Both the position numbers and the translations under genes were made by a program. A stretch of DNA of 32,000 bases from an archaeon GW2011_AR10 (GTDB taxonomy: Archaea; Iainarchaeota; Iainarchaeia; Iainarchaeales; GW2011-AR10), in assembly GCA_000830275.1 (NCBI GenBank), contig CP010424.1, forward strand, positions 540,001 to 572,000, written 5' to 3'. Below, piece by piece: positions 1-24,351 of the stretch. Below the pieces are notes generated by a model, which made no database searches, was not told where the DNA came from, and saw nothing but the letters and a program-made list of their open reading frames with translations. Within the stretch, counting starts at the first letter, position 1. Each line of letters begins with the position of its first letter.

Positions 1-2
1 AG

Positions 3-1106: not shown

Positions 1107-1117
1107 TTCTTTAGAAG

Positions 1118-1213: not shown

Positions 1214-1229
1214 GTTGAAGCCAGTCCTT

Positions 1230-1625
1230 CTAGATGATTTCTTTTTTTATGTTCGTGAATCTTTGAAAATGTTTGTCTTTTGTGAGCACAGTGAGATCGT
1301 TTTCCCCAGCGGTTGCAGCTATTATGCAGTCTATCAGGCCAACTTGGCGACCGCTCTTTTTAATGCCCTTATTGGCTTCGAACCACATCTTGCCAGCTGT
1401 GAATTCACCTGCACGGGAACTATTGAGAATTCCACTGCAGGAGGTTTCCACTCTTGGAAGTATCTGCGCTGCAGCAAAGTTGTTTGAGTGGCACCATTTG
1501 CTCATCTCCACTATTGTTACTGCACATGCATAGCGGTCTTTGCCTGCAATTTTTTTCATTGCGTTTTTTCCGCTTTCCGTTTCCCGAAAAATATCTATCC
1601 ATACGGATGTGTCAACCAAGTACAT
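1230..1625 (-). CDS. vapC: PIN-domain toxin (VapC family)
   Basis: The ORF track extends to 1652, but the ATG at 1625 gives MYLVDTSVWIDIF, a typical PIN N-terminus with the conserved Asp. It lies 1 nt after the stop of the upstream AbrB-type ORF. The later LIDCIIAATA and VLTKD segments fit the PIN fold. Confidence 0.8.
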   Translation of the reverse strand: MYLVDTSVWIDIFRETESGKNAMKKIAGKDRYACAVTIVEMSKWCHSNNFAAAQILPRVETSCSGILNSSRAGEFTAGKMWFEANKGIKKSGRQVGLIDCIIAATAGENDLTVLTKDKHFQRFTNIKKEII

Positions 1626-1626
1626 T

Positions 1627-1842
1627 TCAGAAAACCCTGTCTTTTTCCTCACGCTTAAATGGCTTTGCTCCCTTGGCTATGCCGAATAGTTCTGATAGAG
1701 CCCTTTCATTGTCCTGCCTTATGACGCTTATTTTCAATGTTTGGTTGAATTTCAGTTTGTTTTCTTTCAAATCCTTCTTTTTGATGGCAATTGCTGCAGA
1801 ATTGCCAAGCCTTACCACTTTGCCTTCAATCATATCAATCAC
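1627..1842 (-). CDS. vapB: AbrB/SpoVT-type antitoxin (VapB-like)
   Basis: 71 aa. GKVVRLGNSAAIAIKKKDL resembles the swapped-hairpin AbrB/SpoVT DNA-binding motif. It sits immediately upstream of the PIN gene on the same strand. Confidence 0.7.
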   Translation of the reverse strand: MIDMIEGKVVRLGNSAAIAIKKKDLKENKLKFNQTLKISVIRQDNERALSELFGIAKGAKPFKREEKDRVF

Positions 1843-1849
1843 CTATGTA

Positions 1850-1861
1850 ATAACTTGTTAT
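1850..1861. promoter_or_regulatory. Short inverted repeat ATAAC-TT-GTTAT upstream of vapB (candidate operator)
   Basis: A 5-bp-arm palindrome lies 8-19 nt upstream of the vapB ATG at 1842. AbrB-type antitoxins usually autoregulate through palindromes. The repeat is short, so support is weak. Confidence 0.25.
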
Positions 1862-1931
1862 AACTATTTTTAATATGTTTTGTGTCCTGCAAGACAGTTA
1901 GCTGCTGAGGAAGTTATGCGGATTTGTAAGG

Positions 1932-1939
1932 TTTTTATA
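1932..1939 (+). promoter_or_regulatory. TATA-like box (TTTTTATA) about 26 nt upstream of the 1962 ATG
   Basis: The spacing fits an archaeal TATA box driving a leaderless or near-leaderless mRNA. No Shine-Dalgarno-like purine run lies between the box and the ATG. Confidence 0.45.
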
Positions 1940-1961
1940 GTGGTTTTATGTATTTTTTTCT

Positions 1962-2660
1962 ATGGTAAAGCAAGCATTCATTCTCGCAGGCGGTAAAGGG
2001 GAAAGGCTGAAGCCATTAACGAACGAAATGCCTAAACCCCTGTTGGATGTGGATGGCAAGCCGATACTGCAGCACGTAGTGGAGGGGTTAACGGAGCAAG
2101 GCATTAATGAAATCGTGCTCGCGGTTGGCTACAAGCACGAAAAAATCAAAAAATTTTTTGGAAGCGGAGAAAAATTCGGCGCAAAAATCAAGTACATTGT
2201 TGAAAAAGAATTTCTAGGCACTGGAGGGGCGCTTAAAAACGCGGAGCGAATGCTACACGAAAGGTTTTTGATGCTGAACGGCGACAATCTTGCTGATTTT
2301 GATTATAGTGCAATGGAGAAACTGCACGAACAAGAAAAAGCGCTTGCAACAATTGCATTGGTGGAAGTTGCAGACCCCAGCGCATACGGAGTAGCAGAAC
2401 TCCAAGGAAAAAAAATAATCAGGTTCATTGAAAAGCCCCCTAAAGGAAAAGCGCCAAGCAACCTAATCAATGCCGGGGCATACGTGCTGGAAAAAAAAGC
2501 GCTGAAATTCCTGCCAAGCGGTTTTAATCTGATTGAGAAAACGCTTTTCCCTGAGCTCGCAAAACAGGATAGGCTCGCTGGTTACAGGCATTCAGGAAAA
2601 TGGTTTGCGCTTGACACAAAAGAAAAACTTGAGGAAGCAAAGCGCGAGTGGAAAAAATAG
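1962..2660 (+). CDS. Sugar-1-phosphate nucleotidyltransferase (short NTP_transferase type, Glc-1-P/Man-1-P family)
   Basis: The N-terminal signature is AFILAGGKGERLKPLTNEMPKPLL (GxGxRL...K). LMLNGDN and INAGAYV are typical of the family. 232 aa. Confidence 0.85.
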   Translation: MVKQAFILAGGKGERLKPLTNEMPKPLLDVDGKPILQHVVEGLTEQGINEIVLAVGYKHEKIKKFFGSGEKFGAKIKYIVEKEFLGTGGALKNAERMLHERFLMLNGDNLADFDYSAMEKLHEQEKALATIALVEVADPSAYGVAELQGKKIIRFIEKPPKGKAPSNLINAGAYVLEKKALKFLPSGFNLIEKTLFPELAKQDRLAGYRHSGKWFALDTKEKLEEAKREWKK

Positions 2661-2670
2661 CCGGGAAATG

Positions 2671-2687
2671 AAAAGCAACCTGCTTTT
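2671..2687. terminator. Small hairpin AAAAGC-aacct-GCTTTT between convergent genes
   Basis: A 6-bp perfect stem with a 5-nt loop lies in the 44-nt gap between the 2660 (+) and 2705 (-) gene ends. The T-run on the + strand and A-run on the other side make it a candidate bidirectional terminator. Confidence 0.3.
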
Positions 2688-2704
2688 ACAATTGCCACGC
2701 CAAA

Positions 2705-3076
2705 TTATTTAACGAATTCCACGTTTGGCATGCCTTCAAATGCTTTATCCCCTGTAACAAACATTAATCTGTTTTCTTTTGCCAGCACATAACCTATAGA
2801 GTCAATGTAGGAAAACTTTTTCCTGGAATTTTCTTTTCTAAAAATCGCTATTTTTGAAACTTGGCCTTCCTGTATTTCGAGTGCAGTGAACTTCGTAGAA
2901 TCAAGTATTTTTAATGCATTTTCCTTTGAAAATGATTTAAACAAGTGATAGGCGACTTCCACAAGGTTAATTCTGGTTGAAAAAGGAATTGCACCTGAAA
3001 ACTTATCATAGTTCGGGTTGCCCCTGAGAATCTCGATTATTGCATAAGAGTCAAGAAAATAGCTTTTCTCTTTCAT
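2705..3076 (-). CDS. vapC: PIN-domain toxin (VapC family)
   Basis: SYFLDSYAIIEIL (N-terminal Asp) and FVTGDKAF near the C-terminus are typical PIN features. 123 aa. It lies directly downstream of, and overlaps, an AbrB-type ORF. Confidence 0.75.
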   Translation of the reverse strand: MKEKSYFLDSYAIIEILRGNPNYDKFSGAIPFSTRINLVEVAYHLFKSFSKENALKILDSTKFTALEIQEGQVSKIAIFRKENSRKKFSYIDSIGYVLAKENRLMFVTGDKAFEGMPNVEFVK

Positions 3077-3290
3077 GGTCCTCTTCCCTAAGTTTGCCCT
3101 TTAGTTTTTGCGCATCTATTTTCCAGCCAGCGGCAAGGCCGAAAAAATCCTTCACCGTTGACTTTTTTTCCTTATGAAAGTCTATGAAAAATTTTTCATT
3201 TTCTTTGATGCCTTCTTTTTCTACGGCTTCCTTTGGCAAGGTAACACCCAAAGAATTCCCCCATTTTCTTGCTATAACTTCTACTTCCAT
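3051..3290 (-). CDS. vapB: AbrB/MazE-type antitoxin (VapB-like)
   Basis: The motif is ARKWGNSLGVTLPKEAVEKEGIKE (SpoVT/AbrB fold). 79 aa. Its 3' end overlaps the PIN gene start by 26 nt. Confidence 0.75.
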   Translation of the reverse strand: MEVEVIARKWGNSLGVTLPKEAVEKEGIKENEKFFIDFHKEKKSTVKDFFGLAAGWKIDAQKLKGKLREEDHEREKLFS

Positions 3291-3301
3291 AAAAACACCT
3301 A

Positions 3302-3325
3302 AATATAATTTGATATAATTATATT
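3302..3325. promoter_or_regulatory. Inverted repeat AATATAATT-N6-AATTATATT upstream of vapB (promoter/operator candidate)
   Basis: 9-bp perfect arms lie 12-35 nt upstream of the 3290 start. The repeat overlaps TATA-like sequence on the minus strand. Confidence 0.4.
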
Positions 3326-3393
3326 AAAAACCTTTCTTCATCGCTTCACTCGCCAAAAAATTTCGGAAGCAAAGCGCGGGTGGAACTAAGCAG

Positions 3394-3873
3394 CTATTTT
3401 CTTCTCCTGAACCTGCTGCGCAGCTTTGCAAAAACAGATTTTTTGCGCAGAGATGATTCACGGCGTTGTTTTTGCAGTTTCTTCAAGTCAAGCGGCGCTG
3501 GAACCTTCAATATTTCTCCAAGTCCGCCAATTGACCCCCTCTTTATTTCTCTGGCCAAGAGTCTTTTACCGGACTGTGAAAGTCTCACCGAATTCATTAT
3601 AGGAACAATTGTCGTGCAGCCCTTTGATTTGCCCCACTTAATAACTCTAACGAGAAGCTCCTGCATAGGAGTTCTGCCTTCGCCAGTAACTTTCTTGGTT
3701 AATCTGAAAAAAGAAAGATTTGAGCTAATATTTTCAGATCCGATTGATGTAATGACAATAAAATTGCCGGGTGCATCTACAGCATGTAAAGCAGCAACTA
3801 TTTTTCCATTATCATAAAACCGAAACCCAACTCCATTTCCAAAATGAAATTCCCTTATTTCAAACCTCGCCAT
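3394..3873 (-). CDS. Hypothetical protein, weakly GNAT-like core with a strongly basic C-terminal tail
   Basis: ATG start. TGEGRTPMQELLVRVIKWGKSKGCTTIV loosely resembles GNAT motif A. The tail is QKQRRESSLRKKSVFAKLRSRFRRRK. The antisense ORF 3380..3817 looks like a shadow frame. Confidence 0.55.
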   Translation of the reverse strand: MARFEIREFHFGNGVGFRFYDNGKIVAALHAVDAPGNFIVITSIGSENISSNLSFFRLTKKVTGEGRTPMQELLVRVIKWGKSKGCTTIVPIMNSVRLSQSGKRLLAREIKRGSIGGLGEILKVPAPLDLKKLQKQRRESSLRKKSVFAKLRSRFRRRK

Positions 3874-3907
3874 AATATAATTAAACGATTCCGAGTATTA
3901 AACATTT

Positions 3908-3946
3908 CTTATAAAGGAATCTTATAAAGGAATCTTATAAAGGAAT
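3908..3946. repeat. Perfect tandem repeat, 3 x 13 bp (CTTATAAAGGAAT)
   Basis: Read directly from the sequence. Each unit carries TTTATAA on the minus strand (TATA-box-like). The nearest unit lies about 36-42 nt upstream of the 3873 ATG. Confidence 0.9.
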
Positions 3947-4208
3947 GACCAAACAAAATCTAGTGCGGTAAAACCTCGGAAAAGAGCCAGATTGATGCAA
4001 GCGCAACAGCAACCAAAAAAACTTCCGCCGTGTTAAGGTTGATGCCGCAAATTATTGGGCTGTGCAGCTCAACCCAAGGCAGAAAATCAAGAAAAATTAT
4101 TGCCAAAAAGGTTATGTATATCCATCAATTTTTCCCGGAAAGTTGATCGCCGGCAAAAAATAATTTTTTTTGATTATGTATCAGAACAATATCAAGGTTT
4201 TTAAAAAG

Positions 4209-4216
4209 TTTTATAC
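4209..4216 (+). promoter_or_regulatory. TATA-like box (TTTTATAC) upstream of the surface-protein gene
   Basis: It lies about 35 nt upstream of the TTG at 4247 and about 50 nt upstream of the TTG at 4262. An A-rich stretch precedes it. Confidence 0.35.
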
Positions 4217-4246
4217 ACGCTTTACTTTAATTTCTCGTGCTTTTAT

Positions 4247-7200
4247 TTGGGGGAAACACAATTGAGTCATGCTAAACTGTTCCTTTGCCTTTTCCTGCTC
4301 TTCGGAGTGCTGCAGGTTTCAGCTGCAGTTCCAAGCGTTTCAGTTGTGAGCCCAAGCGCTGACGGCAACTATCTAAAAGGCACAGCCGGCATTGTTTTCA
4401 CTGTTTTGGACTCTGATGCGCCAGCAGACATTAACGCGAACATATATTATAGCAGTTCAGCTGGAGCGCACACCAATGCAGTTCAGCTGAATTATGCCTT
4501 GAACGCCTCCAGTTGCGATGGCACAGACTTCACCTCAACAAGAACCTGCTCTTACAGCTGGAACACAACAGGAGCAGCTGACGGGAACTACTTTATTGAT
4601 GTTAACGTTGTAACAAGCATTGACTCCGCGGAAGACTCCTCTGACAACGATTTCAGGGTTGACAACACTGCTCCTTCAACAAGCTCTGATGTTAATTCAG
4701 GCACATGGCAAAAATTTGATTTCACAATTACTCTTACTTGCACAGACTCTGGCGGCTGCTCTTCCACTGCTTACAGGGTTGATTCAGGAGCATGGAGCAC
4801 TGGCAACAGCGTTTCCATAACAACTGACGGCAACCACCAAGTGGATTTCAATTCAACAGACCTTGCTAGAAACGTGGAAAGCACTAAAACTGTTTACGCT
4901 TTGCGCGACACAACCATTCCAACGATTTCTATTTCATCTCCTGCAAATGGGAGCACAACTTCAGGCAACACAGTTGCATTTGACTTAAATGATGCATTGG
5001 GAGCAGTTAACCTGAGCAGCATTGCGGTTGACATTAACGGCACTGCCTCAACTGCATTCAGTTCAAGCAGTTGCTCTGATGTAAACGGCCAAGCGCACTG
5101 CTCTTACACTGAAACAAAGTTTGACACAAACAGTGCTGACTACAATGTTGCTGTGAGAGCCTCAGACAAGGCAGGCAACAAGGCAGCACAAGCTCAATCC
5201 TTGTTCAAATACCTTGACTCTGCTGCTCCAAGCCAAGTAACAGGCTTTACTTCCGCCTCTGGCAACGGGCAAATCCAATTGAGTTGGACTGCTAACAGCG
5301 CAACAGACCTAAACCATTACAATGTTTACATGAGCACTTCATCTGGCTTTGCAACTGACGGCAACACTTTAATCGCTGTTGTTGCTGCCGGCACAAATTC
5401 TTACACTAAAACAGGCCTAAGCAACGGGACAACCTATTACTTTAAGGTCAGCGCTGAAGACAAAACAGGGAATGAGGGAGCAGACTCTGACCAGATAAAT
5501 GCGGCTCCAACCGCTGGCGGCTCTGGTTTAAGCTCTCCAAGCATTTCAAGTTCAACCCACACGCATGACTCTTGGAGCACTAACAACCTGCCTTCTTTTT
5601 CTTGGGGCTCGGTTTCAGGCGCTGACAACTACAGCTACGAATTCAACCAGTCAAGCGATTCAACGCCTGACACTTCATCTGACACTTCGGGCACTTCTTA
5701 CAGCCCCGGCACCAAAGATGATGGCATATGGTATTTCCATGTGAGGGCGTGCGCTTCAGGAAGCTGCGGGAGCACCTCGCATTTCACTGTTAAGATTGAC
5801 ACTACCGGGCCAGAGCAGGTAACTGACCTGACAATCAACGCTAATGCTGATGGCACAATGGACCTTGAATGGGATTCAGCATCTGACAGGCCATCAGGCA
5901 ACAACTCTGGAGTGAAAGAGTACTGGGTTTACAGGGACAACGAAAATGATTTCAGCGTGAGCAATACAAAGAGGGTTGGCATTACCAGTTCAAGCAATTT
6001 CACTGATGACGGCAGTGACCTCATAAAAGATGTAAGGTATTATTACAAGGTGCGGGCAGTTGACAACGCAGGAAACTCTGGCCAGATAAGCGCTGAGGTT
6101 TCAGCTCAGGCGAGTAAGACTGGCGCATGCGACTTTGATGTTTCATTCAGCTTTGACGAGTTTGTCGGCTCCGGCAAAATAACAGTTGGGGCAAGCTCTA
6201 ATTCCTCAATGTCAGACATTGTTTTCAGGCTGCGAGTTCCGGGAATTGGCTACCTTAAAGAGGAAAGCATTGACTCTTCCTCCAGAAGCGTAACAGCAAC
6301 GTATGATGTTAACTCTAACTTTGACGGGAAAACAGCGGAGTTTTCTTTGAGCGCAAAGGACAACTCTGGCAATGAATGTTTTTTCAGGGCTACGCCAAAA
6401 ATTGACGGCAAAGCCCCTTCGGTTGACTGGCTGAGCCCATTAGAAGAAGCAGAGCTTGACTTGAGCAGGGAGCAGTCACTTGAAGTGAGTGTAACTGATG
6501 AAGGCTCCGGAGTGAAAGAGGTTGAATTTTTTTACGATAGCGGTTCAGGGTTTGTTTCATTAGGGAAAGATTCAAGCGGTGTTTCAGGCAAGTATTCAAT
6601 TGAAACTTCAAGCATTCAGGCAGGAGAGAACGGCTTAAAGCTGAAAGCAGTTGCAACTGATAATGCTGGAAACGAAGCGGAAGCAGAAATCCAAACATCG
6701 GTTGAGCGTGCCTCAATTGTCGTGCTTACTTCAAACCAGAAAGAGTACGGAAGCCAAAGCTTTAATTACTCTGATGCAGACATTCCAACACTGCTTGCTG
6801 ATGCAGGACTCCAAGATTCGCTGATTGAAGAAGCTGAAGCCCTGTTCAATGAAAACACTGTTGAAAGGAACCTTGTTGTTTTAGAGGAAAATGGAACATT
6901 CACTGCAAGCGTTATTTTAATCGTGCGCAACAATTCAGCTGAAACACTTGACTTGCAGGTGGTTGAGGTTATTCCAAAAGAGTTCGCGCAGAAAGCTTCT
7001 GATATTGAGTCAAGCCGCTCTTTTGATGTTTTAAACTCTGATCCCGTAATAAAGTTTTTGCTGGAGGGCATTGAACCTGATGAAACGATTCTGATAACAT
7101 ATCAGTTGAAGGGTTCATTTAGTCAAGCAAAAGCAGACAGCATTCTTTCAAGTAGCATGACTGAAAAGTTCGCTGCTCCCCCAATAGTTCTCGGAGCAGA

Positions 7201-7474
7201 CAGTGAACTGGGAGACAGCTTTAAAGAAGAAACATCTCTTTCAGGGTTTTTGGCGCTCATTGCTTTAATCATTGTTTTGCTGGTTGCCATAATTGTTTTG
7301 CTGGCTGTTCTCGGCGGCGGCCTGTTCCTGCACCAAAGGAAAAGGCAAGGATTTGGGGCAACAACTGCACTGCACTATAGGAGGGACGACATGTTCGGAA
7401 AATTAAAGAAAGCACTCGAAGGGCAAGAAGTTATAGGGCCTAAACGAGGCAAGTTCGCTTGGAAAGGCAAATGA
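4247..7474 (+). CDS. Large cell-surface (S-layer-like) protein with Ig/FN3-like repeats and a C-terminal TM anchor
   Basis: It has a signal-like segment LFLCLFLLFGVLQVSAAVP. Ser/Thr/Asn/Asp-rich beta repeats include GTNSYTKTGLSNGTTYYFKVSAEDKTGNEG and VRYYYKVRAVDNAGNSG. A single C-terminal TM (LALIALIIVLLVAIIVLLAVLGGGLFL) is followed by a basic tail. The track start is TTG; the in-frame TTG at 4262, preceded by GGGGG, is an alternative start. Confidence 0.85.
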   Translation: MGETQLSHAKLFLCLFLLFGVLQVSAAVPSVSVVSPSADGNYLKGTAGIVFTVLDSDAPADINANIYYSSSAGAHTNAVQLNYALNASSCDGTDFTSTRTCSYSWNTTGAADGNYFIDVNVVTSIDSAEDSSDNDFRVDNTAPSTSSDVNSGTWQKFDFTITLTCTDSGGCSSTAYRVDSGAWSTGNSVSITTDGNHQVDFNSTDLARNVESTKTVYALRDTTIPTISISSPANGSTTSGNTVAFDLNDALGAVNLSSIAVDINGTASTAFSSSSCSDVNGQAHCSYTETKFDTNSADYNVAVRASDKAGNKAAQAQSLFKYLDSAAPSQVTGFTSASGNGQIQLSWTANSATDLNHYNVYMSTSSGFATDGNTLIAVVAAGTNSYTKTGLSNGTTYYFKVSAEDKTGNEGADSDQINAAPTAGGSGLSSPSISSSTHTHDSWSTNNLPSFSWGSVSGADNYSYEFNQSSDSTPDTSSDTSGTSYSPGTKDDGIWYFHVRACASGSCGSTSHFTVKIDTTGPEQVTDLTINANADGTMDLEWDSASDRPSGNNSGVKEYWVYRDNENDFSVSNTKRVGITSSSNFTDDGSDLIKDVRYYYKVRAVDNAGNSGQISAEVSAQASKTGACDFDVSFSFDEFVGSGKITVGASSNSSMSDIVFRLRVPGIGYLKEESIDSSSRSVTATYDVNSNFDGKTAEFSLSAKDNSGNECFFRATPKIDGKAPSVDWLSPLEEAELDLSREQSLEVSVTDEGSGVKEVEFFYDSGSGFVSLGKDSSGVSGKYSIETSSIQAGENGLKLKAVATDNAGNEAEAEIQTSVERASIVVLTSNQKEYGSQSFNYSDADIPTLLADAGLQDSLIEEAEALFNENTVERNLVVLEENGTFTASVILIVRNNSAETLDLQVVEVIPKEFAQKASDIESSRSFDVLNSDPVIKFLLEGIEPDETILITYQLKGSFSQAKADSILSSSMTEKFAAPPIVLGADSELGDSFKEETSLSGFLALIALIIVLLVAIIVLLAVLGGGLFLHQRKRQGFGATTALHYRRDDMFGKLKKALEGQEVIGPKRGKFAWKGK

Positions 7475-7540
7475 GTAACCCGCCAATCCAAAAATAGAAA
7501 AGCCCAATCAAAGCATTTAGCTTGCGCAACCACTAAGAGT

Positions 7541-7627
7541 TATAGCAAAATGCTTATGTGTTTGAATTAAAATCGCATTTTGCAACCAGCAAATTAAATG
7601 TTCAAAAATTAAAGCTGTTTGCTATAG
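7541..7627. repeat. Two-hairpin copy (types II + III, inverted orientation) of the CTATAG-bounded hairpin family
   Basis: Hairpin 3a: GCAAAATGC 7545-7553 pairs with GCATTTTGC 7575-7583 (perfect). Hairpin 3b: GCAACCAGC 7582-7590 pairs with GCTGTTTGC 7614-7622 (one mismatch). The 3b loop is the reverse complement of the TTAATTTTTGAACATTTA motif. A T8 run follows at 7637-7644. Confidence 0.8.
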
Positions 7628-7693
7628 TTCCCAAACTTTTTTTTGCACCCCGTTTTCGGCTTATGGAAATCAGGTGCTTTGGCTTTAAGGCAT

Positions 7694-8767
7694 TCATTTC
7701 AGCACAGAATTAACGGCTTCGCAGACCTTTTCAGCGTCCTCAATTTTCAGTGAAGGGTAAATTGGGAGTGAAACAACAAGCTTTGCAAGGTTTTCCGAGG
7801 CAGGAAACTCTCCGCCTTTGAAGCCAAGCGCATCCATGAACGCGGGTTGCAAGTGGATTGGCTTGGCGTAGTGGACTGCATAGCCTATGCCTTCCGCTTC
7901 AAGCACTCTTAAGAGTTTTTCTCTTTCAGTTGCCTTAATCGCAAAAACGTTGTAGGAGTGGGTTGAACCCTTAATCTGCGAGAAGAAAGCGTTTTGTGGC
8001 AAATTTTTTTGATAGATGGAGGCAATTTTTTGGCGTTTCTCAACCCATTTATCCAAGTATTTGAGTTGCACTAAGCCGATTGCTGCATTCACTGTGTTTA
8101 AGCGCTCTGTAAAGCCAATCAACCCATGACTATCAGTGGAAACCCTGCCACAGTCACGGTAAGAGCGGGCTTTTTCAGCCATTTCCTCGTTGTTTGTTGC
8201 AATCATTCCACCGTCGCCGCCAACGTTCATGTTTTTTGTAGGGTAAAAAGAAAAGCAGCCTGCGTCCCCAAAGCTTCCTGCCTTTTTTCCATTGAATTCT
8301 GCACCGTGGGCCTGGCACGCATCCTCCACCAATAACAGCTTGTTGTCCTTGCAGAAGTCCAGTAGTTCGTTCATTTTGCAGCTCTGGCCATAGAGGTGCA
8401 CTGGCATAACTGCTGCAAGCCTATCGGCACTTTTAAGAGAGGCGGGTTCAATTAATGCTGTTTCCTCGCTGACATCAACCAGCAGTGGCTTGGAACCAGC
8501 ATGTATTACGGATGTGGCGCTTGCAATAAAGCTCCAAGCAGGAACAAGCACTTTCTGTTTTGGTTTAATGCCAAGCGAGAGTAAAGCAATTTTTAGTGCG
8601 GCTGTTCCGGAGCTGACTGCAACCGCTTCTTTTACTCCAAGGTACTCTGCGAATGCCTCCTCGAACCTTAACACTGATTCGCCTAAAACAAACTTTTCGC
8701 TTTCAAGGGCCGACAAAGCAGCCTGCTTCATTTCCTCGTTGAACTCCTGCCGAAAGAAGGGAATCAT
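7694..8767 (-). CDS. DegT/DnrJ/EryC1/StrS-family PLP-dependent sugar aminotransferase (ArnB-like)
   Basis: EKFVLGESVLRFEEAFAEYLGVKEAVAVSSGTAAL and LVEDACQAHGA are family motifs. FSFYPTKNM carries the putative PLP lysine. 357 aa. Confidence 0.9.
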   Translation of the reverse strand: MIPFFRQEFNEEMKQAALSALESEKFVLGESVLRFEEAFAEYLGVKEAVAVSSGTAALKIALLSLGIKPKQKVLVPAWSFIASATSVIHAGSKPLLVDVSEETALIEPASLKSADRLAAVMPVHLYGQSCKMNELLDFCKDNKLLLVEDACQAHGAEFNGKKAGSFGDAGCFSFYPTKNMNVGGDGGMIATNNEEMAEKARSYRDCGRVSTDSHGLIGFTERLNTVNAAIGLVQLKYLDKWVEKRQKIASIYQKNLPQNAFFSQIKGSTHSYNVFAIKATEREKLLRVLEAEGIGYAVHYAKPIHLQPAFMDALGFKGGEFPASENLAKLVVSLPIYPSLKIEDAEKVCEAVNSVLK

Positions 8768-8832
8768 GGTTTCGCCTTGCCCTATTTTTCCAACAAGGTT
8801 GCTTTAAACAATTTGTTTTTCAAGGTTTCTGG

Positions 8833-8841
8833 TTTAAAATA
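8833..8841 (+). promoter_or_regulatory. TATA-like box (TTTAAAATA) about 33 nt upstream of the 8870 ATG
   Basis: It lies in the 100-nt divergent gap between the DegT and GT2 genes. A second palindromic TTTAAA at 8803-8808 lies about 38 nt from the DegT ATG on the other strand. Confidence 0.35.
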
Positions 8842-8869
8842 ATTTTCAGCCTAATAAGTTTTGGTCAGC

Positions 8870-9574
8870 ATGAAAAAAGACTTTGTTTCTTTTGTTGTTC
8901 CTGTCTTCAATGAAGAGGAAAACATTGAAAAAATAGCAAACCGTTTAGTTCAGGTGGGGAGAAAAAAATTTTATGAATTTGAAGTGATTTTGGTAAATGA
9001 CAACAGCACCGACAATACATATGCTATCATGCAAAAACTCAAAAAAAAGTTCAAAGAGGTTGAAGTGCTTTCAAGAGCCGATAGCAGCAAAGGAATGGGT
9101 TATGCGCTTGTTGACGGAACAAGGAAAGCAAAAGGCAGCATTGTTGTGTGGACAATGGCTGATTTATCGGATGACGTTCTAACGTATCCAAAATTGGTTG
9201 AAAAAATTAACAAGGGGTTCGACCTTGTTGTTGCCTCACGCTGGATTGACGGGGGTTCACGTGGAACACTTGGAAAAGGAAAAGCGTTTCTGAGCAAAAA
9301 CTGCAGTGCATTTTATCGGCTTGTTTTTGGTTTGCCGGTTCATGATTTAACAAATGCATTTCGGGCATTCAGAAAAGAGATTTTTGATGCAGTGCAATTG
9401 GAGTCAGGGGACTTTGCAATTTCTCCGGAGTTTGCGATTAAAGCCCATAAAAAAGGTTTTCAGGTGGGAGAAGTACCAACTACTTACACTGACCGATACG
9501 CAGGAAAAAGCAAGTTCAGTTTTGCAAAAATGGGGCTGCGGTATTTTAGTTTGCTCAAGTACAGGTTTTACTGA
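8870..9574 (+). CDS. GT2 glycosyltransferase, polyprenyl-phosphate sugar synthase type (DPM1/ArnC/GtrB-like)
   Basis: FVSFVVPVFNEEENIEKI...ILVNDNSTDNT and MADLSDD (DxD-like) are the GT2 motifs. It is small and soluble. The track starts at the TTG at 8861; the ATG at 8870 (MKKDF) is preferred. Confidence 0.8.
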   Translation: MKKDFVSFVVPVFNEEENIEKIANRLVQVGRKKFYEFEVILVNDNSTDNTYAIMQKLKKKFKEVEVLSRADSSKGMGYALVDGTRKAKGSIVVWTMADLSDDVLTYPKLVEKINKGFDLVVASRWIDGGSRGTLGKGKAFLSKNCSAFYRLVFGLPVHDLTNAFRAFRKEIFDAVQLESGDFAISPEFAIKAHKKGFQVGEVPTTYTDRYAGKSKFSFAKMGLRYFSLLKYRFY

Positions 9575-10348
9575 ATGCCAAAAAATAGTTTAGCCAGAAA
9601 AATTGTTCACCACTTTTTCGGTTTACTGGACAGGGCATTTGTGTTGAGAGCCATCAGGATGGTATTCGGCTACAGGGGAGCCATTGTGCTAATGTACCAT
9701 GACATCCCGGGAAAAGAGTTTGAACAGCAGCTGGAGTTCCTGAAAAGAAACTTTGATATCATACCAGTTGAAGAACTAGTGAAGGGGCTAGAGGTTCGCG
9801 GAAGCATGCAGGGAAAATGCGTTCTAACTTTTGATGACGGCTATAAGTCATTCCATTCAGATATCTTTCCGGTTATAAAAAAGCATTCAGTGCCGGTAAC
9901 TGTTTTCCTTATTGCTGGCGCGATAGGAAAAAAGTTCAATGAAAAAAACCTAATGAACTGGACGGAAATCTTGGAACTGCAGGAAACCGGCCTTGTTTCT
10001 TTTGGCTCGCACAGTTTAAGTCATCCTCACTTAAACAAATTAAGCAGGGCACAGCTTGACAGGGAATTGTCAGAATCAAAAAAGGCACTTGAAAAAAAGC
10101 TTGGAAAAAAAATTGAGTTCTTTGCTGCACCTTATGGGGAATATTCAGCAAACCATTTGAATGCTTTCAGCAAAGCAGGGTATAGGGCTGCACTAACTGT
10201 TGTTGAAGGGGACAATATTGCAGGGGGAAATCTTCTGGAATTAAAGCGCATAACAGTTGAAAAATTGCATAAGCCAACCCACATTTATTTCACAACAAGC
10301 GGCCTTAACCGCTTCTTTCAAAAACCCGGACTCCTGAAAAAGATTTGA
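9575..10348 (+). CDS. Polysaccharide deacetylase (CE4/NodB-homology, ArnD-like)
   Basis: CE4 motif 1 is LTFDDGY and motif 2 is HSLSHPH. Its ATG directly abuts the stop of the preceding GT2 (TGAATG). Confidence 0.85.
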   Translation: MPKNSLARKIVHHFFGLLDRAFVLRAIRMVFGYRGAIVLMYHDIPGKEFEQQLEFLKRNFDIIPVEELVKGLEVRGSMQGKCVLTFDDGYKSFHSDIFPVIKKHSVPVTVFLIAGAIGKKFNEKNLMNWTEILELQETGLVSFGSHSLSHPHLNKLSRAQLDRELSESKKALEKKLGKKIEFFAAPYGEYSANHLNAFSKAGYRAALTVVEGDNIAGGNLLELKRITVEKLHKPTHIYFTTSGLNRFFQKPGLLKKI

Positions 10349-11885
10349 CAGGAGCGTAGTTCTGCATAACGTAATTGTGAAGTTTTGGCGAGAAATCTGA
10401 AAGCTTTTTGCCGTCAACTTCCGAATCAGAATAAACTATGTAGCGGGGCTTTTTTTCCTCCAGCGCCGAAATTATTTCATCAATTTCCTGTTCAGTGTTG
10501 TAAGGGTACACAAGCATGTGCCTTGAAGGGTTTGGGCGCTGCAGGAAATAATAGTAAAGCGGTTCAGTGGGCAGCACAAACACAGGCTCATTTTCGCTTG
10601 TGTTCCGGTGAATGAATTCAACCAATTCCTTTTGCTCTGCTGAAAGGAATTCCTCCTGCAACTGCTGGAAAGATACAATTCTGTTGCCGAGCGGATTATT
10701 TAATGCGTTTAGCCCATCAATTGTTTTCTGGAGAAAGCCGCCGTTTACAAAAAAGTATATAAAAAACAAAAAAACAAAAATTATTGCAATAATCGCAGGA
10801 ATTTTTCTCCCAAATTTTGCACTGAAATCCTTGGCTGCATTAATCGAAATTTTTTCCAGCATGAAAACAAGCAGAATGTAGGCTGGCGCTACAGCAAAAG
10901 CAACATGCGAAAAATCAACTCGAGTAGTTGCGGACTTGAAAAGGAAAACCCCGAACAGGAAAACAAGTAGTGCAAAAAAATCGGTTTGGGAAAATTGTTT
11001 GCTTCGGTGTTTTTGAACAAAATATATTGCTGAAACAAGGTAAACCGCAATAGGAAAGTAGAACTTGAATGAAAGCCCTGCAAGCGCTAAGCCCACTGAG
11101 TGGAGGTCAAGTGCTTGTGGAAGCAGCCCGGCCAAAGGAGGAATGGGCCTCGAAATTGTTTCAGCAAAGCGGGGAACGTAAAGCACTAAATCATCAAACG
11201 CGTAACCCAGTGCTCCGTTTATGGCAAGCCACAAAATGAACAGAGCAACCGCTAAAACACCCGGAAAGAAAAAAAATTTTGTTTCCATTAAATTTTTTGT
11301 GGTTTTGAATTTTTGTTTCAGCACAAAAAAATCCAGGAGAAAAAAAACTGTTGAAGCAGCAATAAGGTAAACGAAAATTTCGTGCGAAAGCAGGAAAATG
11401 ATTCCTGCCATCACGCCTGCAAGTGCAAGGAACCATTTTTTTCCTTTTTCAAAAAAATAAATCAGAAAAAGAATAGAGAGAATGGCAGGGTAAACCCTTA
11501 CAGTCAGCCAGTAAATGCCAAGCACTCCAAGGAATGCAGCAAGGAAAGCGAAAAGGCTTGTTTTCATTAATTTTCTCGCAAGAAGGAAAACAACCAGCGG
11601 GCCTACGATCAGGCTGTTCAATAGGCCAAACGACTCAACAACCGAAATTATGCTGATGCCGGAAACGGAATAAATTGCAGCCATCAAATAAAACTGCAGC
11701 GGCATGTAAATTGTTGCAAAGTCAAGGTACGGAATTTTGCCTGCAGCAACCCATTCAACGCTTTGAACGTATATGCCTGTGTCAAAAAAATTCAGGGGTT
11801 TCTGTGGCGGGGCACCAATAAAGAAAAGCAAGCCAAAAAAAAACAGGAGAATTGCGAAAAATCCTTTAGGAAGGGATTGCATCAC
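10305..11885 (-). CDS. Multi-pass membrane protein with a C-terminal soluble domain, putative GT-C-fold glycosyltransferase
   Basis: 526 aa. Many hydrophobic helices are followed by a roughly 140-aa polar C-terminal domain. The first loop reads GKIPYLDFATIYMPL. The start overlaps the upstream SDR stop (ATGA). The family assignment is an inference from architecture and context. Confidence 0.6.
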   Translation of the reverse strand: MMQSLPKGFFAILLFFFGLLFFIGAPPQKPLNFFDTGIYVQSVEWVAAGKIPYLDFATIYMPLQFYLMAAIYSVSGISIISVVESFGLLNSLIVGPLVVFLLARKLMKTSLFAFLAAFLGVLGIYWLTVRVYPAILSILFLIYFFEKGKKWFLALAGVMAGIIFLLSHEIFVYLIAASTVFFLLDFFVLKQKFKTTKNLMETKFFFFPGVLAVALFILWLAINGALGYAFDDLVLYVPRFAETISRPIPPLAGLLPQALDLHSVGLALAGLSFKFYFPIAVYLVSAIYFVQKHRSKQFSQTDFFALLVFLFGVFLFKSATTRVDFSHVAFAVAPAYILLVFMLEKISINAAKDFSAKFGRKIPAIIAIIFVFLFFIYFFVNGGFLQKTIDGLNALNNPLGNRIVSFQQLQEEFLSAEQKELVEFIHRNTSENEPVFVLPTEPLYYYFLQRPNPSRHMLVYPYNTEQEIDEIISALEEKKPRYIVYSDSEVDGKKLSDFSPKLHNYVMQNYAPVKSFSGVRVFERSG

Positions 11886-12811
11886 TCTGCACCTTTCTGT
11901 GCCCTGAAAACCCTTGCAATTCCTTCATCCAGGGAAATCCTTGCGCTCCAGCCGAGTTCCTTGTTTGCCCTTAAAACATCAAAAACGTGCTTTTCCGGAT
12001 CAGCCCTGCTTTCAGTGCGGATTATTTTGGACTTTGAGTTGGTTATTTGCCTCACTTTTTCTGCGAGCTCGTTAAGGGTTATGCCTTTTCCCGTGCCAAT
12101 GTTGAACAGCCTTGATTTTGTCTTCATGAAAGCCGCTTTTGCAGCTGCAGTTGCGATGTCCTCTGCATGCGTCAAATCCCTTACAGTGCTTCCATCACCA
12201 AAAATCTCGATTGGCTTGCCTTGAATTGCGCTGAAAACAAAGTTGTTTATTACCCCTGTTTTTGATGTCATTGCCTGTCTTTCACCATAGGCAGCGGTTG
12301 GGCGCAAAACAGCATAGTTTAGACCGCTGGTTAGGCGGAATAATTCCAAGTAGTTTTCAATTGCAATTTTTGATGCAGCGTAAGGTGTAATAGGATTTGT
12401 TTTGTGCGTTTCGGTTATCGGAATTTTTTCCGGGTTACCGTAAACCGCAATTGAGCTAATGTAAACGATTTTTTCCACGTTTTCTTTAACAGCACTTTCC
12501 ATGAGCGAAACAGAAGGAACAATGTTGGTTTGCGCATCAAACAGCGCTTTGCCAACGCTTTCCCTTGGAAAAGTGGAATGAATGCAGTGGAAAACAATCT
12601 CGTTTCCTTTCAGTGCTTCTCGTACCTCTGCAGAATTTTGAAAATCCCCTTTTACAAATTTAGTTTTATCTAAAACTCCTGCAAGGTTTTTTTTATTCAG
12701 TGTTTTGTCAAAAACAGTTACATCATTTTCAAGCAAAACTAGCTGCTCTGTTATGTGGCTGCCGATAAAGCCGCTTCCACCAAGCACCAAACAACTTGCC
12801 AATTTCACCAC
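11882..12811 (-). CDS. NAD-dependent epimerase/dehydratase (extended SDR, GalE/UXS/ArnA-C-like)
   Basis: The Rossmann motif is LGGSGFIGSH and the catalytic YxxxK is YAASKIA. The track start is GTG. Confidence 0.85.
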   Translation of the reverse strand: MVKLASCLVLGGSGFIGSHITEQLVLLENDVTVFDKTLNKKNLAGVLDKTKFVKGDFQNSAEVREALKGNEIVFHCIHSTFPRESVGKALFDAQTNIVPSVSLMESAVKENVEKIVYISSIAVYGNPEKIPITETHKTNPITPYAASKIAIENYLELFRLTSGLNYAVLRPTAAYGERQAMTSKTGVINNFVFSAIQGKPIEIFGDGSTVRDLTHAEDIATAAAKAAFMKTKSRLFNIGTGKGITLNELAEKVRQITNSKSKIIRTESRADPEKHVFDVLRANKELGWSARISLDEGIARVFRAQKGAE

Positions 12812-13719
12812 TGTAAAAGGTTAATTTTTATGAGCTCCAAAACAAGTTTGGCGCGGGAAAAATTAAATAACAATACACTTACAATCAATTCCGCAATATT
12901 GCTAGGCAACACAACCAGTTTAAGCAAAACAAGGTTTAAGAGACCGTGGTGCTTCCTGAAAAACTTGTTTAAGTTAGTATAATACATTATGTATCTGGCG
13001 TCAGGCGTTTTGCTTGAAGCCCCGCCAAGATGGATGACCCTGCTGTCAGGGCTGAAGAAAATCTTCCAGCCTGCTTTCTTCATGCGGTAAAACCAATCAG
13101 TCTCTTCTACATAAACAAAGTAGTTTTCATCGAATCCTCCCACTTCTTCAATTGCCTCTCCACTAACAATATAGCACGCACCGGTGAAAGAGTCAACTTC
13201 CTGCAACTTATCGTAATTGAATTTTGTTTCAGCGAACCTTTTTCCAAGGAATGGAATGCGCAGCAGCAGCTCCCTTGAAACACTCGGGAAAGGGTGAACG
13301 TTTTTCTGAACGCTTTTGTCCTTGTTGAGGAGCTTGCAGGAAACCGCAGCGGCTTTTTCGTTTTGCTGCATGAATTCAACAATTGGTTTCAGGGAATCAA
13401 GGAAAATTATGTCGGAGCTGACAATTGCGATGAAAGGAGCATGAGATGAATGAATGGCCTGATTGAATGCTTTGCCAAAGCCAAGGTTTTCCTTATTGGC
13501 AATAAGTTTTGCTTTGGGAAACTTTTTTTTCACGAGCACAATGCTGCCGTCAGTGCTGCCGTTGTCAACCACAATTACCTCAAAACCAATATTATTTAGT
13601 TTTTTGTAAGCAGAATTAAGGCACTGCTCCAGCAAAGCCCTTGTGTTCCAGTTAACCACTGCAACAGTTAAAACTCTTTCCCCATTTTTGCCTGAAAAAG
13701 CTTTTTTTGGTTTTTCCAC
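12805..13719 (-). CDS. GT2 glycosyltransferase (rhamnosyl/galactosyl-transferase-like)
   Basis: LTVAVVNWNTRALLEQCL...VIVVDNGSTDGS and NLGFGKAFNQA are the motifs. 304 aa. Confidence 0.85.
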   Translation of the reverse strand: MEKPKKAFSGKNGERVLTVAVVNWNTRALLEQCLNSAYKKLNNIGFEVIVVDNGSTDGSIVLVKKKFPKAKLIANKENLGFGKAFNQAIHSSHAPFIAIVSSDIIFLDSLKPIVEFMQQNEKAAAVSCKLLNKDKSVQKNVHPFPSVSRELLLRIPFLGKRFAETKFNYDKLQEVDSFTGACYIVSGEAIEEVGGFDENYFVYVEETDWFYRMKKAGWKIFFSPDSRVIHLGGASSKTPDARYIMYYTNLNKFFRKHHGLLNLVLLKLVVLPSNIAELIVSVLLFNFSRAKLVLELIKINLLQW

Positions 13720-13759
13720 AAAAAGAAATTGCTATAAAAATATTAAAACCTGAACTGGT

Positions 13760-14476
13760 TCAGTTTCCTTTTGAGAAAAGTGTTTCAAGCCTTACGCGCA
13801 GCAGGTCGCGGGCGGTTTTCTTGATGCGGTTAAAGCCAAAGCACTGGCTGCTGCCGAATTCCCGTTCAAGGTGCTTCACCGGCACCTCCGCAATTTTGAA
13901 GCCGGCTTTCTTAGCCTTGTAAACCAATTCCGCACTGAAAAAACCGCTTTTTGAAGTAAGGGTTATTTTGTCGAAAATTTTCCTGCGCGCAAGCTTGTAG
14001 CTGCAATCAAGGTCCTTAACCGCAAAACCGAATGAAAGAAAAATGAGGAGCTTGTAGATTTTCTGGAAAAATTTTCTCTGGAAGCCTTCAACCCTGTTGG
14101 TTCTGTAGCCTATCACCAAATCTGCATCCTGCATTGCTTCCATAAATTTTGGCAGGTCTTCAACACTGTACTGCGCGTCACCATCAGTAAACCCAACGAA
14201 CTCTTTTTTGCCTGAAAGGAAACCGGTTGTTAGAGCCCCACCGTAATCCATGTTTTTTTCGTGGTGGATTACGCGCATTCTGCCGAGTTTTTTCGCAAGC
14301 TTTTCTGCGACCTCGCCTGACTTATCAGGGGAGGCATCATTTACAACAATCAGCTCGAAGTCGCGGCCGCTTTTTTTCAGAAAACTGTGAAATTTTGGGA
14401 CAATTTTTGGAAGCGACTTCTCATCATGGTAAGCCGGAAAGAAAAAAGAAACGCTTTCCATGCCTTCTGCAGCCAT
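13760..14476 (-). CDS. GT2, polyprenyl-phosphate glycosyltransferase type (GtrB/ArnC-like), paralog of 29378..30082
   Basis: SVSFFFPAYHDEKSLP...LIVVNDASPDKS and FTDGDAQY (DxD) are the GT2 motifs. The C-terminal PVKHLEREFGSSQ resembles the ArnC/GtrB HxxREFGxSK motif. Confidence 0.85.
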   Translation of the reverse strand: MAAEGMESVSFFFPAYHDEKSLPKIVPKFHSFLKKSGRDFELIVVNDASPDKSGEVAEKLAKKLGRMRVIHHEKNMDYGGALTTGFLSGKKEFVGFTDGDAQYSVEDLPKFMEAMQDADLVIGYRTNRVEGFQRKFFQKIYKLLIFLSFGFAVKDLDCSYKLARRKIFDKITLTSKSGFFSAELVYKAKKAGFKIAEVPVKHLEREFGSSQCFGFNRIKKTARDLLRVRLETLFSKGN

Positions 14477-14497
14477 ACCCTAATTTTTTCTCAATCC

Positions 14498-14517
14498 TAT
14501 TAAAAAATGTGATATCA
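14498..14517 (-). promoter_or_regulatory. TATA-like box (TTTTTTAATA on the minus strand) plus adjacent 8-bp palindrome TGATATCA
   Basis: The TATA-like centre is about 26 nt upstream of the 14476 ATG, a leaderless geometry. The palindrome at 14510-14517 lies just upstream of it and could be a regulator site. Confidence 0.4.
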
Positions 14518-14518
14518 T

Positions 14519-14536
14519 CCACACCCAAAGGTGTGG
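14519..14536. other. GC-rich hairpin alpha: CCACACC-caaa-GGTGTGG
   Basis: A 7-bp perfect stem with a 4-nt loop, read directly from the sequence. Confidence 0.7.
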
Positions 14537-14583
14537 GCTTCCTGCCACATGGAAAAGTCAAAAGGTAATTGAAGAGACTTTAT

Positions 14584-14607
14584 CCAACATCTGAAGATGT
14601 TGGTTTT
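14584..14607 (+). other. Hairpin beta: CCAACATC-tgaa-GATGTTGG followed by TTTT
   Basis: An 8-bp perfect stem with a 4-nt loop, then T4. Its 5' flank (ATCCA) and shape resemble hairpin alpha 65 nt upstream. Confidence 0.7.
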
Positions 14608-14663
14608 CGCCAGCCTCTTCCTAAAAGGCTGATGGAGTTTTTCGAAAGCACCCAAAGCAGAAT

Positions 14664-14848
14664 TATAGCAAAAGACATTAGTTTCGGTAATTTCTTAATG
14701 TCTTTTGCGACTATAGCAAACAGCCAATATTTTTGAACTTTTTATTGCTGTTTGCTAGATGCAAAACGCAGTTTCAATGTTCAATTACTTAAGCGTTTTG
14801 CTATAGCGAATGACTTGTTTTCTACCATTATTAAAGTCATTCGCTATT
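14664..14848. repeat. Array of four abutting different hairpins (types IV-III-II-I) joined by CTATAG
   Basis: A: 14668-14680 pairs with 14696-14708 (13 bp). B: 14714-14724 pairs with 14747-14757 (11 bp). C: 14761-14769 pairs with 14793-14801 (9 bp). D: 14803-14815 pairs with 14835-14847 (13 bp). All four stems are perfect. Junction hexamers are CTATAG at 14711-14716 and 14801-14806, and CTAGAT at 14755-14760. Confidence 0.85.
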
Positions 14849-22573: not shown

Positions 22574-22586
22574 GCGTGAACGGGAA

Positions 22587-24347: not shown

Positions 24348-24351
24348 GGTA

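Follow-up and report, generated by a model that had tools for sequence, protein, structure and literature searches.

Three-component carrier-lipid systems made up of a family 2 glycosyltransferase (GT2), a flippase and a membrane glycosyltransferase of the GT-C fold are widespread (PMC11127046, PMC8035078). In the archaeon Haloferax volcanii, the AglD/AglR/AglS proteins work in this manner: a GT2 loads dolichyl phosphate (Dol-P), the lipid is flipped and a multi-pass transferase extends the attached glycan outside the cell (PMC3871713). Here we describe a seven-gene block in a stretch of 32,000 nucleotides (nt), referred to below as the window, from the archaeon GW2011_AR10 (CP010424.1, positions 540,001-572,000 of the forward strand, assembly GCA_000830275.1). 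In this block, genes for two small GT2s and a predicted GT-C enzyme stand together with a gene for a putative de-N-acetylase of carbohydrate esterase family 4 (CE4). We tentatively favor the view that the block is a dolichyl-phosphate-sugar/GT-C surface-glycosylation cassette with an inserted CE4 deacetylase of the PgaB/IcaB type, and that the CE4 enzyme makes a Dol-P-linked hexosamine (Dol-P-HexN). The novelty would lie in the presence of a PgaB-branch CE4 within an archaeal Dol-P-sugar/GT-C cassette that otherwise looks ordinary. A search of the literature on Iainarchaeum and DPANN glycosylation gave no match specific to this locus.

The likeness to AglD/AglR/AglS, which is also archaeal, stays at the level of parts (the window likewise has a GT2, a GT-C enzyme and a Wzx-like protein). 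The Agl system, however, has no deacetylase, and the flippase candidate of the window lies ~10 kb away from the block. The three-step logic that we propose is that of the Bordetella Lgm and Francisella Flm systems, in which a GT2 first loads an N-acetylhexosamine (HexNAc) on polyprenyl phosphate. A deacetylase then exposes the free amine, and the resulting hexosamine (HexN) is transferred by a GT-C enzyme. The Francisella proteins FlmF2, NaxD and FlmK serve the addition of galactosamine (GalN) to lipid A, NaxD being a member of a different deacetylase family. In Bordetella, lgmABC is required for the glucosamine (GlcN) of lipid A (PMC4993483). The acceptor in both systems is lipid A, which is not available in this archaeon.

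The best match to the window in its list of parts is the system that adds GalN to the arabinogalactan of mycobacteria and corynebacteria. We know of no deacetylase assigned in the mycobacterial GalN system. Its components are Rv3634c, a uridine diphosphate (UDP)-Gal/GalNAc 4-epimerase, PpgS, a small polyprenyl-phosphate-HexNAc synthase that has no transmembrane (TM) segment, Rv3632 and the GT-C enzyme Rv3779, by which a hexosamine with a free amine is put on a wall polymer (PMC9671496). The window has an epimerase-type short-chain dehydrogenase/reductase (SDR), TM-less GT2s and a GT-C enzyme, with sequence similarity at the family level only; it differs in having a CE4 candidate and no Rv3632-like small membrane partner. 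Further precedents for the deacetylation of a lipid-linked HexNAc in the cytoplasm, besides lgmABC, are GpgSDF (GlcN-phosphatidylglycerol of P. aeruginosa, PMC12713373) and HexSDF (an aminohexosyl glycolipid of C. difficile, PMC10128005), in which a glycosyltransferase adds HexNAc and an adjacent deacetylase turns the product into a cationic surface lipid. In these two systems the sugar is borne by a membrane phospho- or glycolipid and not by a carrier, there is no GT-C step, and the flippase is MprF-like, a type that is absent from the window.

Limits and organization of the seven-gene block

The host (Candidatus Iainarchaeum, Diapherotrites, DPANN) has a 1.24-Mb genome and comes from groundwater. 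As a DPANN archaeon, it has no lipid A. An earlier interpretation made from the letters of the window alone (the sequence-only reading) had supposed a genome that probably lacks lipid A and a host that might be archaeal, which agrees with the identity of the genome and with the genes for TBP and AglB/STT3 near the block on one strain-variant contig.

The limits of the block follow from a blastn comparison between the window and contigs of other samples with an identical CE4 gene. Strain variant L002 matches the window only from position 7541 onwards, and variants L004 and L005 match it only over 1-14847, after which housekeeping genes follow. The overlap of all variants, at about 7541-14847, holds exactly seven genes on both strands, from the aminotransferase through GT2b:

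7694-8767, minus strand: DegT-family sugar aminotransferase of the pyridoxal phosphate (PLP) type, 357 aa, divergent from GT2a (PF01041, DegT_DnrJ_EryC1, E 1.3e-107)
8768-8869: A/T-rich intergenic region between the divergent aminotransferase and GT2a genes, as read from the sequence
8870-9574, plus strand: GT2a, small GT2 of the dolichyl/polyprenyl-phosphate sugar synthase type, 234 aa (Pfam GT2, 4.4e-27)
9575-10348, plus strand: predicted CE4 (NodB-fold) de-N-acetylase of the PgaB/IcaB type, 257 aa (PF01522, Polysacc_deac_1)
10305-11885, minus strand: predicted membrane glycosyltransferase of the GT-C fold with ~12 TM segments, C-terminal alpha/beta domain, 525/526 aa, last gene of its operon
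11882-12811, minus strand: extended SDR, putatively of the GalE (4-epimerase) type, 309 aa, whose translation is coupled to that of the GT-C gene
12805-13719, minus strand: GT2L, a 304-aa GT2 with C-terminal hydrophobic segments (Pfam GT2, Glyco_tranf_2_3)
13760-14476, minus strand: GT2b, second small polyprenyl-phosphate-type GT2, 238 aa, first gene of the minus-strand operon

Strain rearrangements have left the block together as a unit, and the aminotransferase, GT2L and GT2b travel with it. Since the strains compared are >99.7% identical, this indicates modularity and not deep conservation.

The sequence-only reading had presented five of these genes (aminotransferase, GT2a, CE4, GT-C and SDR) as one module. 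All five open reading frames (ORFs) exist and their superfamily labels are right, but they belong to three transcription units and not to one operon: the aminotransferase alone (minus strand), GT2a-CE4 (plus strand) and GT2b-GT2L-SDR-GT-C (minus strand). The last of these contains two genes that had been overlooked, GT2L and the ArnC-like GT2b. This minus-strand operon converges on the CE4 gene, and the 3' ends overlap by 44 nt. The intergenic region 8768-8869 carries TATA-like boxes (tttaaa and tttaaaataa) ~30-40 nt 5' of each start codon and is probably the promoter region serving both divergent units. The GT2a ORF opens at a TTG at 8861, and other assemblies start the gene at the ATG at 8870. 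At its 3' end the sequence reads 'tac tga atg', so that the CE4 ATG follows directly after the TGA of GT2a, as previously noted. The coupling of the SDR and GT-C genes that had been proposed stands insofar as start and stop overlap, but the junction 'gag tga tgc' reads GTGA/TGATG and not ATGA.

Family assignments of the block enzymes

The CE4 protein matches PF01522 with 107 bits (E 6.5e-31, cut-off 23.1 bits). It contains the motifs TFDDG (residues 85-89) and HSLSH (residues 146-150), and H42, D87, D88, H146, H150 and R225 are all present and invariant or near-invariant among 40 homologues. Both the Asp-His-His metal triad and the catalytic pair, Asp and His, are retained, and the enzyme is predicted to be catalytically complete. 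Its top NCBIfam matches are PgaB (84 bits) and IcaB (77 bits), and the ArnD model of that collection gave no match at E<=0.01; the best PDB matches are IcaB 4wcj and 6dq3. A profile of 40 CE4 sequences aligned with the PgaB N-domain over the full domain length (hhalign 99.8%, E 1.6e-27) and with ArnD over 109 columns (41%). BLASTP to E. coli ArnD in a five-protein database gave an E of 0.057, which is not significant. A further likeness to PgaB and IcaB is the N-terminal His motif that precedes TFDD. The two motifs of the CE4 protein had been described as those of ArnD; E. coli ArnD, however, has neither and carries RIDVDT and HAWDH instead. These comparisons place the window CE4, as far as homology can tell, in the PgaB/IcaB branch and not with ArnD. 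Grouping with peptidoglycan or chitooligosaccharide deacetylases had been named beforehand as the outcome that would speak against an ArnD-like enzyme; put to this test, the protein groups with polysaccharide deacetylases and not with ArnD.

PgaB and IcaB themselves work after export, on a secreted polymer. Membership of their branch would be consistent with an extracellular enzyme that partially de-N-acetylates a GlcNAc surface polymer or glycan after export, and an N-terminal TM-like segment occurs in 41 of 120 CE4 homologues. In the window CE4, however, no TM-like or signal segment is predicted and the ORF has no possible upstream extension. The block also contains no processive synthase of the PgaC/NodC (poly-N-acetylglucosamine, PNAG) type: GT2L has the motif EETDW, is non-processive and lacks QxxRW, because of which a 'processive synthase + CE4' reading of the PNAG/Nod type was rejected. 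We therefore find an extracellular function of the CE4 protein improbable. Its residues 1-35 have a net charge of +6, and the most amphipathic stretch of the protein lies at residues 5-22 (hydrophobic moment 0.56). Such a cationic amphipathic N-terminus fits a cytoplasmic enzyme that works at the membrane surface.

For GT2a, the best PDB matches are the Dol-P-mannose synthase (DPMS) of P. furiosus (5mlz, 91 bits), ArnC (55 bits) and GtrB (51 bits), and the top NCBIfam matches are ArnC, PgfS, AglJ and Dol-P-hexose transferase. Many orthologues with 50-56% identity are found in Woesearchaeota, Altiarchaeota and Nanoarchaeota. GT2b is closest to ArnC (80 bits), followed by DPMS (51 bits). The ArnC model of NCBIfam scores 70 bits and, for GT2b, 86 bits against a cut-off of 529, and the PpgS model gives weak matches of 32-40 bits to the TM-less GT2s of the window; all NCBIfam matches of the small GT2s, to whichever of these models, are far below the equivalog cut-offs. 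As the closest characterized relatives are all of this kind over the whole catalytic domain, GT2a and GT2b are predicted to be polyprenyl-phosphate-type GT2s, which is how the first of them had been classified from the start. No TM segment was found in any of the four small GT2s of the window. A paralogue of GT2b is encoded at 29378-30082, the DNA being 68% identical to 29440-30064.

The protein encoded at 10305-11885 has no Pfam match of its own. A word-indexed homologue search with it returned only its own cluster and one weak match, and its family was obtained by scanning 1.84 billion representatives in full with HMMER, which yielded 2255 full-length relatives with 25-30% identity (E<=1e-3). 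PMT_2 (PF13231) is matched by 52 of 78 aligned family members. AlphaFold (AF2) modeling from the single sequence was unusable (pLDDT 48.5); with the family alignment it gave a model with a pLDDT of 89 and a pTM of 0.90. In a Foldseek search of the PDB with this model, the top 17 matches were all GT-C enzymes (AglB, STT3, DPY19, ArnT, PglB, Pmt4 and EmbB; probability 1.0, TM ~0.5). The model thus indicates a GT-C fold, and the expectation of such a fold for the 526-aa membrane protein was borne out. The match to the ArnT fold (E 3.5e-6) is no better than that to oligosaccharyltransferase (OST) or DPY19, and BLASTP against the E. coli proteins gave no sequence match to ArnT. Two aspartates of the first outside loop, D35 and D55, are conserved in 71 and 76 of the 78 family members, respectively, and both are kept in the window protein. 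That the enzyme uses a polyprenyl-phosphate-linked donor is suggested by the polyprenyl-phosphate-type GT2 genes adjacent to it here and in its relatives. Informative Rosetta-stone fusions were sought in 10 longer family members; one F5/8 type C domain was found and nothing that bears on function.

The SDR scores 152 bits with the GalE model of NCBIfam, short of its equivalog cut-off (262), and 39 bits with ArnA; its best PDB matches, 4zrm (169 bits) and 7ys8 (140 bits), are both UDP-glucose 4-epimerases. When the SDR is aligned with E. coli GalE, with RmlB and with the C-terminal domain of ArnA, its motif SSIAVYG has Ala at the site of the catalytic Glu (ArnA E434, RmlB E135), and S119/S120, Y144 and K148 (YxxxK) are kept. 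The protein appears to be an epimerase-type enzyme. Because the catalytic Glu is replaced by Ala and the best match is to a UDP-glucose 4-epimerase, a decarboxylase/dehydratase step like that of the ArnA C-terminal domain, which had been assigned to this gene, is not expected. The SDR type is in keeping with how an epimerase, PpgS and a GT-C enzyme combine in the mycobacterial GalN system (PMC9671496).

The aminotransferase had been called DegT/ArnB-type, of which the DegT part stands and the ArnB part does not: in the PDB it scores 271 bits with 7b0d and 243 bits with QdtB, compared with 128-152 bits for ArnB. It falls below every equivalog cut-off of NCBIfam (PseC 269/423, ArnB 177/631) and resembles QdtB/DesV-type enzymes, which are 3-aminotransferases, more than ArnB.

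These assignments bear on a true Arn-like pathway, which would deliver a polyprenyl-phosphate-linked 4-amino-4-deoxy-pentose, similar to 4-amino-4-deoxy-arabinose (Ara4N), to an acceptor other than lipid A. The carrier-lipid logic is shared with E. coli Arn, the five superfamilies equal those of ArnB, ArnC, ArnD, ArnT and the ArnA C-terminal domain, and BLASTP finds E. coli ArnB with 27% (E 2e-44) and ArnC with 25% identity (E 5e-19). Against this, the SDR has Ala for the catalytic Glu of ArnA and scores far better with GalE, the CE4 protein is not of the ArnD family, the aminotransferase is closer to the 3-aminotransferases, the GT-C model is as near to OST and DPY19 as to ArnT, and every Arn equivalog score is far under its cut-off. 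Moreover, none of the ORFs of the window encodes Ugd, a formyltransferase or ArnE/F, as had been recognized earlier, and neither a decarboxylase nor lipid A completes the comparison. We regard an Arn-like pathway as very improbable. Since the CE4 protein appears complete and has no signal peptide, the membrane protein a predicted GT-C fold and the GT2 a polyprenyl-phosphate-type sequence, deacetylation on the carrier lipid followed by GT-C transfer of a free-amine sugar is nevertheless a live possibility. The general logic of the sequence-only reading may thus hold, and its Arn-specific homology is refuted.

Related loci and the proposed route

Eleven related loci were compared, eight with homologues of the GT-C family and three with orthologues of GT2a. 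A genome and metagenome search that started from a 4-sequence GT-C alignment gave four genome loci and three metagenome loci; the four genome loci, which are bacterial or from the candidate phyla radiation (CPR), carry no module genes. At the loci of the closest GT-C homologues, the gene directly upstream encodes a polyprenyl-phosphate-type GT2, and nucleotide-sugar enzymes as well as a flippase-type protein are also present. One of them (L013) has the order GtrA - Ugd - SDR - methyltransferase - GT2 (31% identical to GT2a) - GT-C, with a GT-C of the same family, and another (L015) has SDR - GT2::GtrA fusion - GT-C. Among the loci with GT2a orthologues, L026 has a nucleotidyltransferase (NTP-transferase) gene followed by an orthologue with 56% identity, convergent with a GT-C gene and then a 309-aa SDR; this is the layout of the window minus CE4, with a GT-C of a different subfamily. 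In L027, EamA-like small membrane proteins precede a GT2a orthologue and a Dpy19-like GT-C, and two more GT2/GT-C pairs are present; in L028, a COG0392-type flippase (LPG_synthase_TM) precedes the orthologue. A cassette of GT2, GT-C and SDR thus recurs among the relatives. The five-gene neighborhood as such, whose conservation had been made a test, does not.

The EamA-like proteins of L027, a DPANN relative, have 117 and 115 aa, are reminiscent of ArnE/ArnF and are encoded directly 5' of the GT2a orthologue (4298-7501 of that locus). Nothing in the window comes as near to the flippase arrangement of Arn as this array.

Because the CE4 gene is missing from all 11 related loci, it is best seen as a lineage-specific insertion into the recurrent GT2/GT-C/SDR cassette. 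Homologues of the CE4 protein recur beside glycosyltransferase genes elsewhere. At the loci of the two closest ones, the order is GT4-CE4-(GT-C::GT4 fusion); these come from two related organisms of one lineage, with proteins that are 68-78% identical. At three bacterial loci, an upstream GT2 gene overlaps the CE4 start by 4 nt, and next to these units lie LpxK/lipid A acyltransferase genes or an MprF-type flippase domain; one of the three, L023, has lipopolysaccharide (LPS)-gene neighbors. Other homologues lie in an O-antigen-like cluster (L018) or as an isolated gene (L017).

The bacterial units (L023 5087-7563, L024 4489-7562 and L025 5252-6768) consist of a GT2 of ~250-305 aa overlapping the CE4 start, often followed by a second, diverged CE4, with LpxK, lipid A acyltransferase or LPG_synthase_TM flippase domains as neighbors. 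NCBIfam has no curated name for these GT2s. The units may serve an uncharacterized addition of HexNAc followed by its deacetylation on a lipid-linked glycan. Separately, composition does not point to a recent transfer of the window CE4 gene, whose GC content is 0.415 vs 0.407 for the window. Among 5.8 billion clusters, no relative of the protein was found between 100% and 37% identity, and the named relatives are bacterial.

Two further genes of the window enter the route that we propose for a Dol-P-HexN cassette:

24325-25872, plus strand: Wzx/AglR-type multi-pass protein with 14 TM-like segments (Pfam Polysacc_synt_3, Polysacc_synt, MatE)
4247-7474, plus strand: surface protein of 1075 aa with a signal peptide, Ig-like domains (Pfam fn3/Big_7) and a C-terminal TM anchor

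In the first step, the GalE-type SDR would supply a 4-epimerized UDP-HexNAc, for example UDP-GalNAc. In the second, soluble GT2a, a member of the Dol-P-sugar synthase type, would load this sugar on dolichyl phosphate at the cytoplasmic face. In the third, the CE4 enzyme, encoded on the same transcript, would strip the N-acetyl group from the lipid-linked sugar in the cytoplasm, yielding Dol-P-HexN. A role like that of the Lgm/Flm deacetylases is suggested indirectly by the abutting stop and start codons, the lack of an export signal and the glycosyltransferase-CE4 coupling at homologue loci. In the fourth step, the lipid would be flipped by the Wzx/AglR-like protein encoded ~10 kb away or by another protein. 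Finally, the GT-C enzyme would hand the sugar on to an acceptor outside the cell, for instance a lipid or the glycan of a surface protein. The gene at 24325-25872, which had been noticed before as coding for a Wzx-type flippase, is not part of the block, and no other flippase candidate is encoded in the window. The 1075-aa surface protein, with 15 N-X-S/T sequons and 23% Ser+Thr, is a possible acceptor; its gene is absent 5' of the block in strain variant L002.

A number of observations weigh against this route. The CE4 family is present in 0/11 related loci, and what ties GT2a, CE4 and GT-C together is therefore their adjacency in a single species-level lineage; the closest CE4 relative outside it is only 37% identical. 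The GT2s coupled to CE4 in bacteria are of another subfamily, with no BLASTP match to GT2a at E<=1e-3. GT2a itself is closest to Dol-P-mannose synthase, and nothing points to a HexNAc donor; by operon structure, the GT-C gene shares its transcript with GT2b and not with GT2a. The block has no dedicated flippase, and the window has no free-standing small GtrA- or ArnEF-like multi-TM ORF, whereas relatives have a flippase-type gene of their own (GtrA in L013 and L015, the EamA-like pair in L027, LPG_synthase_TM in L028). The aminotransferase is unaccounted for, because no keto-sugar-forming enzyme was identified. Finally, the window GT-C alone has T for E36, L for R/K54 and V for R83. Charged residues at these sites are kept by 67-74 of the 78 family members, and their loss could mean an altered donor specificity or an impaired or reduced activity.

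In a rival explanation, the block would be an ordinary Dol-P-sugar/GT-C system for a non-amino sugar, and the CE4 enzyme would serve another substrate of the same island. Such a substrate could be GlcNAc in a Dol-P- or Dol-PP-linked N-glycan precursor made by GT2b and GT2L, or a GlcNAc membrane lipid as in GpgSDF/HexSDF. The position of the CE4 gene next to GT2a and GT-C would then reflect the packing of the island and no shared intermediate. This explanation accords with the absence of CE4 from every related cassette, with the mixed contexts of the CE4 homologues (L018, L023 and L017), and with the similarity of GT2a to a Dol-P-mannose synthase and its wide conservation, without CE4, across DPANN archaea. 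The window is also a dense glycosylation island, with four small GT2s, two GT4s, further GT2s and up to three GT-C candidates, and an archaeal context of COG0392 flippase, polysaccharide deacetylase and glycosyltransferase has been described (PMC5898192). Such packing is harder to reconcile with the CE4 ATG abutting the GT2a stop in a transcription unit of just these two genes, with the placement of CE4 exactly where L026 joins its GT2a orthologue and convergent GT-C, and with the GT-C-containing protein that adjoins the two closest CE4 homologues as well; nor does the window have an MprF/COG0392-type flippase or an adjacent GT4 for a lipid-linked GlcNAc. We consider the separate-substrate explanation a real possibility, although not a probable one.

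A bolder form of the Dol-P-HexN proposal is that a DPANN archaeon independently assembled the sequence of loading HexNAc, deacetylating it on the carrier and transferring the free-amine sugar outside by a GT-C enzyme. So far, this sequence is known from the modification of lipid A (Arn, Lgm and Flm) and suspected for GalN in mycobacteria. In the archaeon it would have arisen when a CE4 of the PgaB type came to lie between a conserved synthase of Dol-P-sugar and its GT-C. The loss of conserved charges from the active-site region of the GT-C enzyme would possibly accommodate a cationic donor, and the product would be a cationic sugar at the cell surface. In this full form we hold the proposal to be rather unlikely.

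The surrounding island and the meaning of the block

The remainder of the window was surveyed as well. Small TM-less polyprenyl-phosphate-type GT2s other than GT2a are encoded at 13760-14476 (GT2b), 19721-20410 and 29378-30082. Large multi-pass proteins adjoin small GT2s at 17939-19549 (PMT_2/STT3 matches and a weak Agl23 match) and at 27216-29381 (13 TM segments, weak chlor_Arch_YYY match), so that several GT2/GT-C pairs are likely to be present in the window. The 595-aa protein encoded at 22560-24347 has similarity to Epimerase_2 and a CDP-glycerol glycerophosphotransferase domain like that of TagF (PF04464, E 4.4e-11), a hint that an archaeon may make a polymer resembling teichoic acid. Also in the island is a 429-aa protein of the flavin adenine dinucleotide (FAD) amine-oxidase family (25874-27163, minus strand), and a similar protein flanks the GT2/GT-C array of L027.

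Just 5' of the island, two PIN-domain toxin genes lie at 1230-1652 and 2705-3076 (minus strand); in public gene calls, one toxin has a MazE-type antitoxin as its partner and the other a 68-aa ORF. The ORF at 3394-3873 (minus strand), once described as weakly GNAT-like, has no Pfam or NCBIfam match and ends in a very basic tail, KKSVFAKLRSRFRRRK.

Within the population, rearrangement breakpoints lie at window positions 7541 and 14690-14847, and strain variant DUFG01000021.1 has wholly different genes 5' of 7541. Because the flanks are swapped at both breakpoints, the remaining glycosylation island varies among near-identical strains. If the CE4 enzyme is unrelated to the GT-C step, the locus is just another variable glycosylation island. 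The practical value is modest: GT2a and CE4, with or without the GT-C gene, make a compact, clearly bounded target for heterologous expression and lipid mass spectrometry.

If the Dol-P-HexN route is correct, it would be the first archaeal case of de-N-acetylation at the level of the carrier lipid that feeds a GT-C enzyme. The strategy of exposing a free-amine sugar on the surface would then be convergent and would have drawn on a CE4 branch other than that of ArnD, and the CE4 enzyme could serve as a model for the deacetylase step in such systems. For an episymbiotic DPANN archaeon, surface charge matters in attachment to the host and in resisting cationic and anionic stresses.

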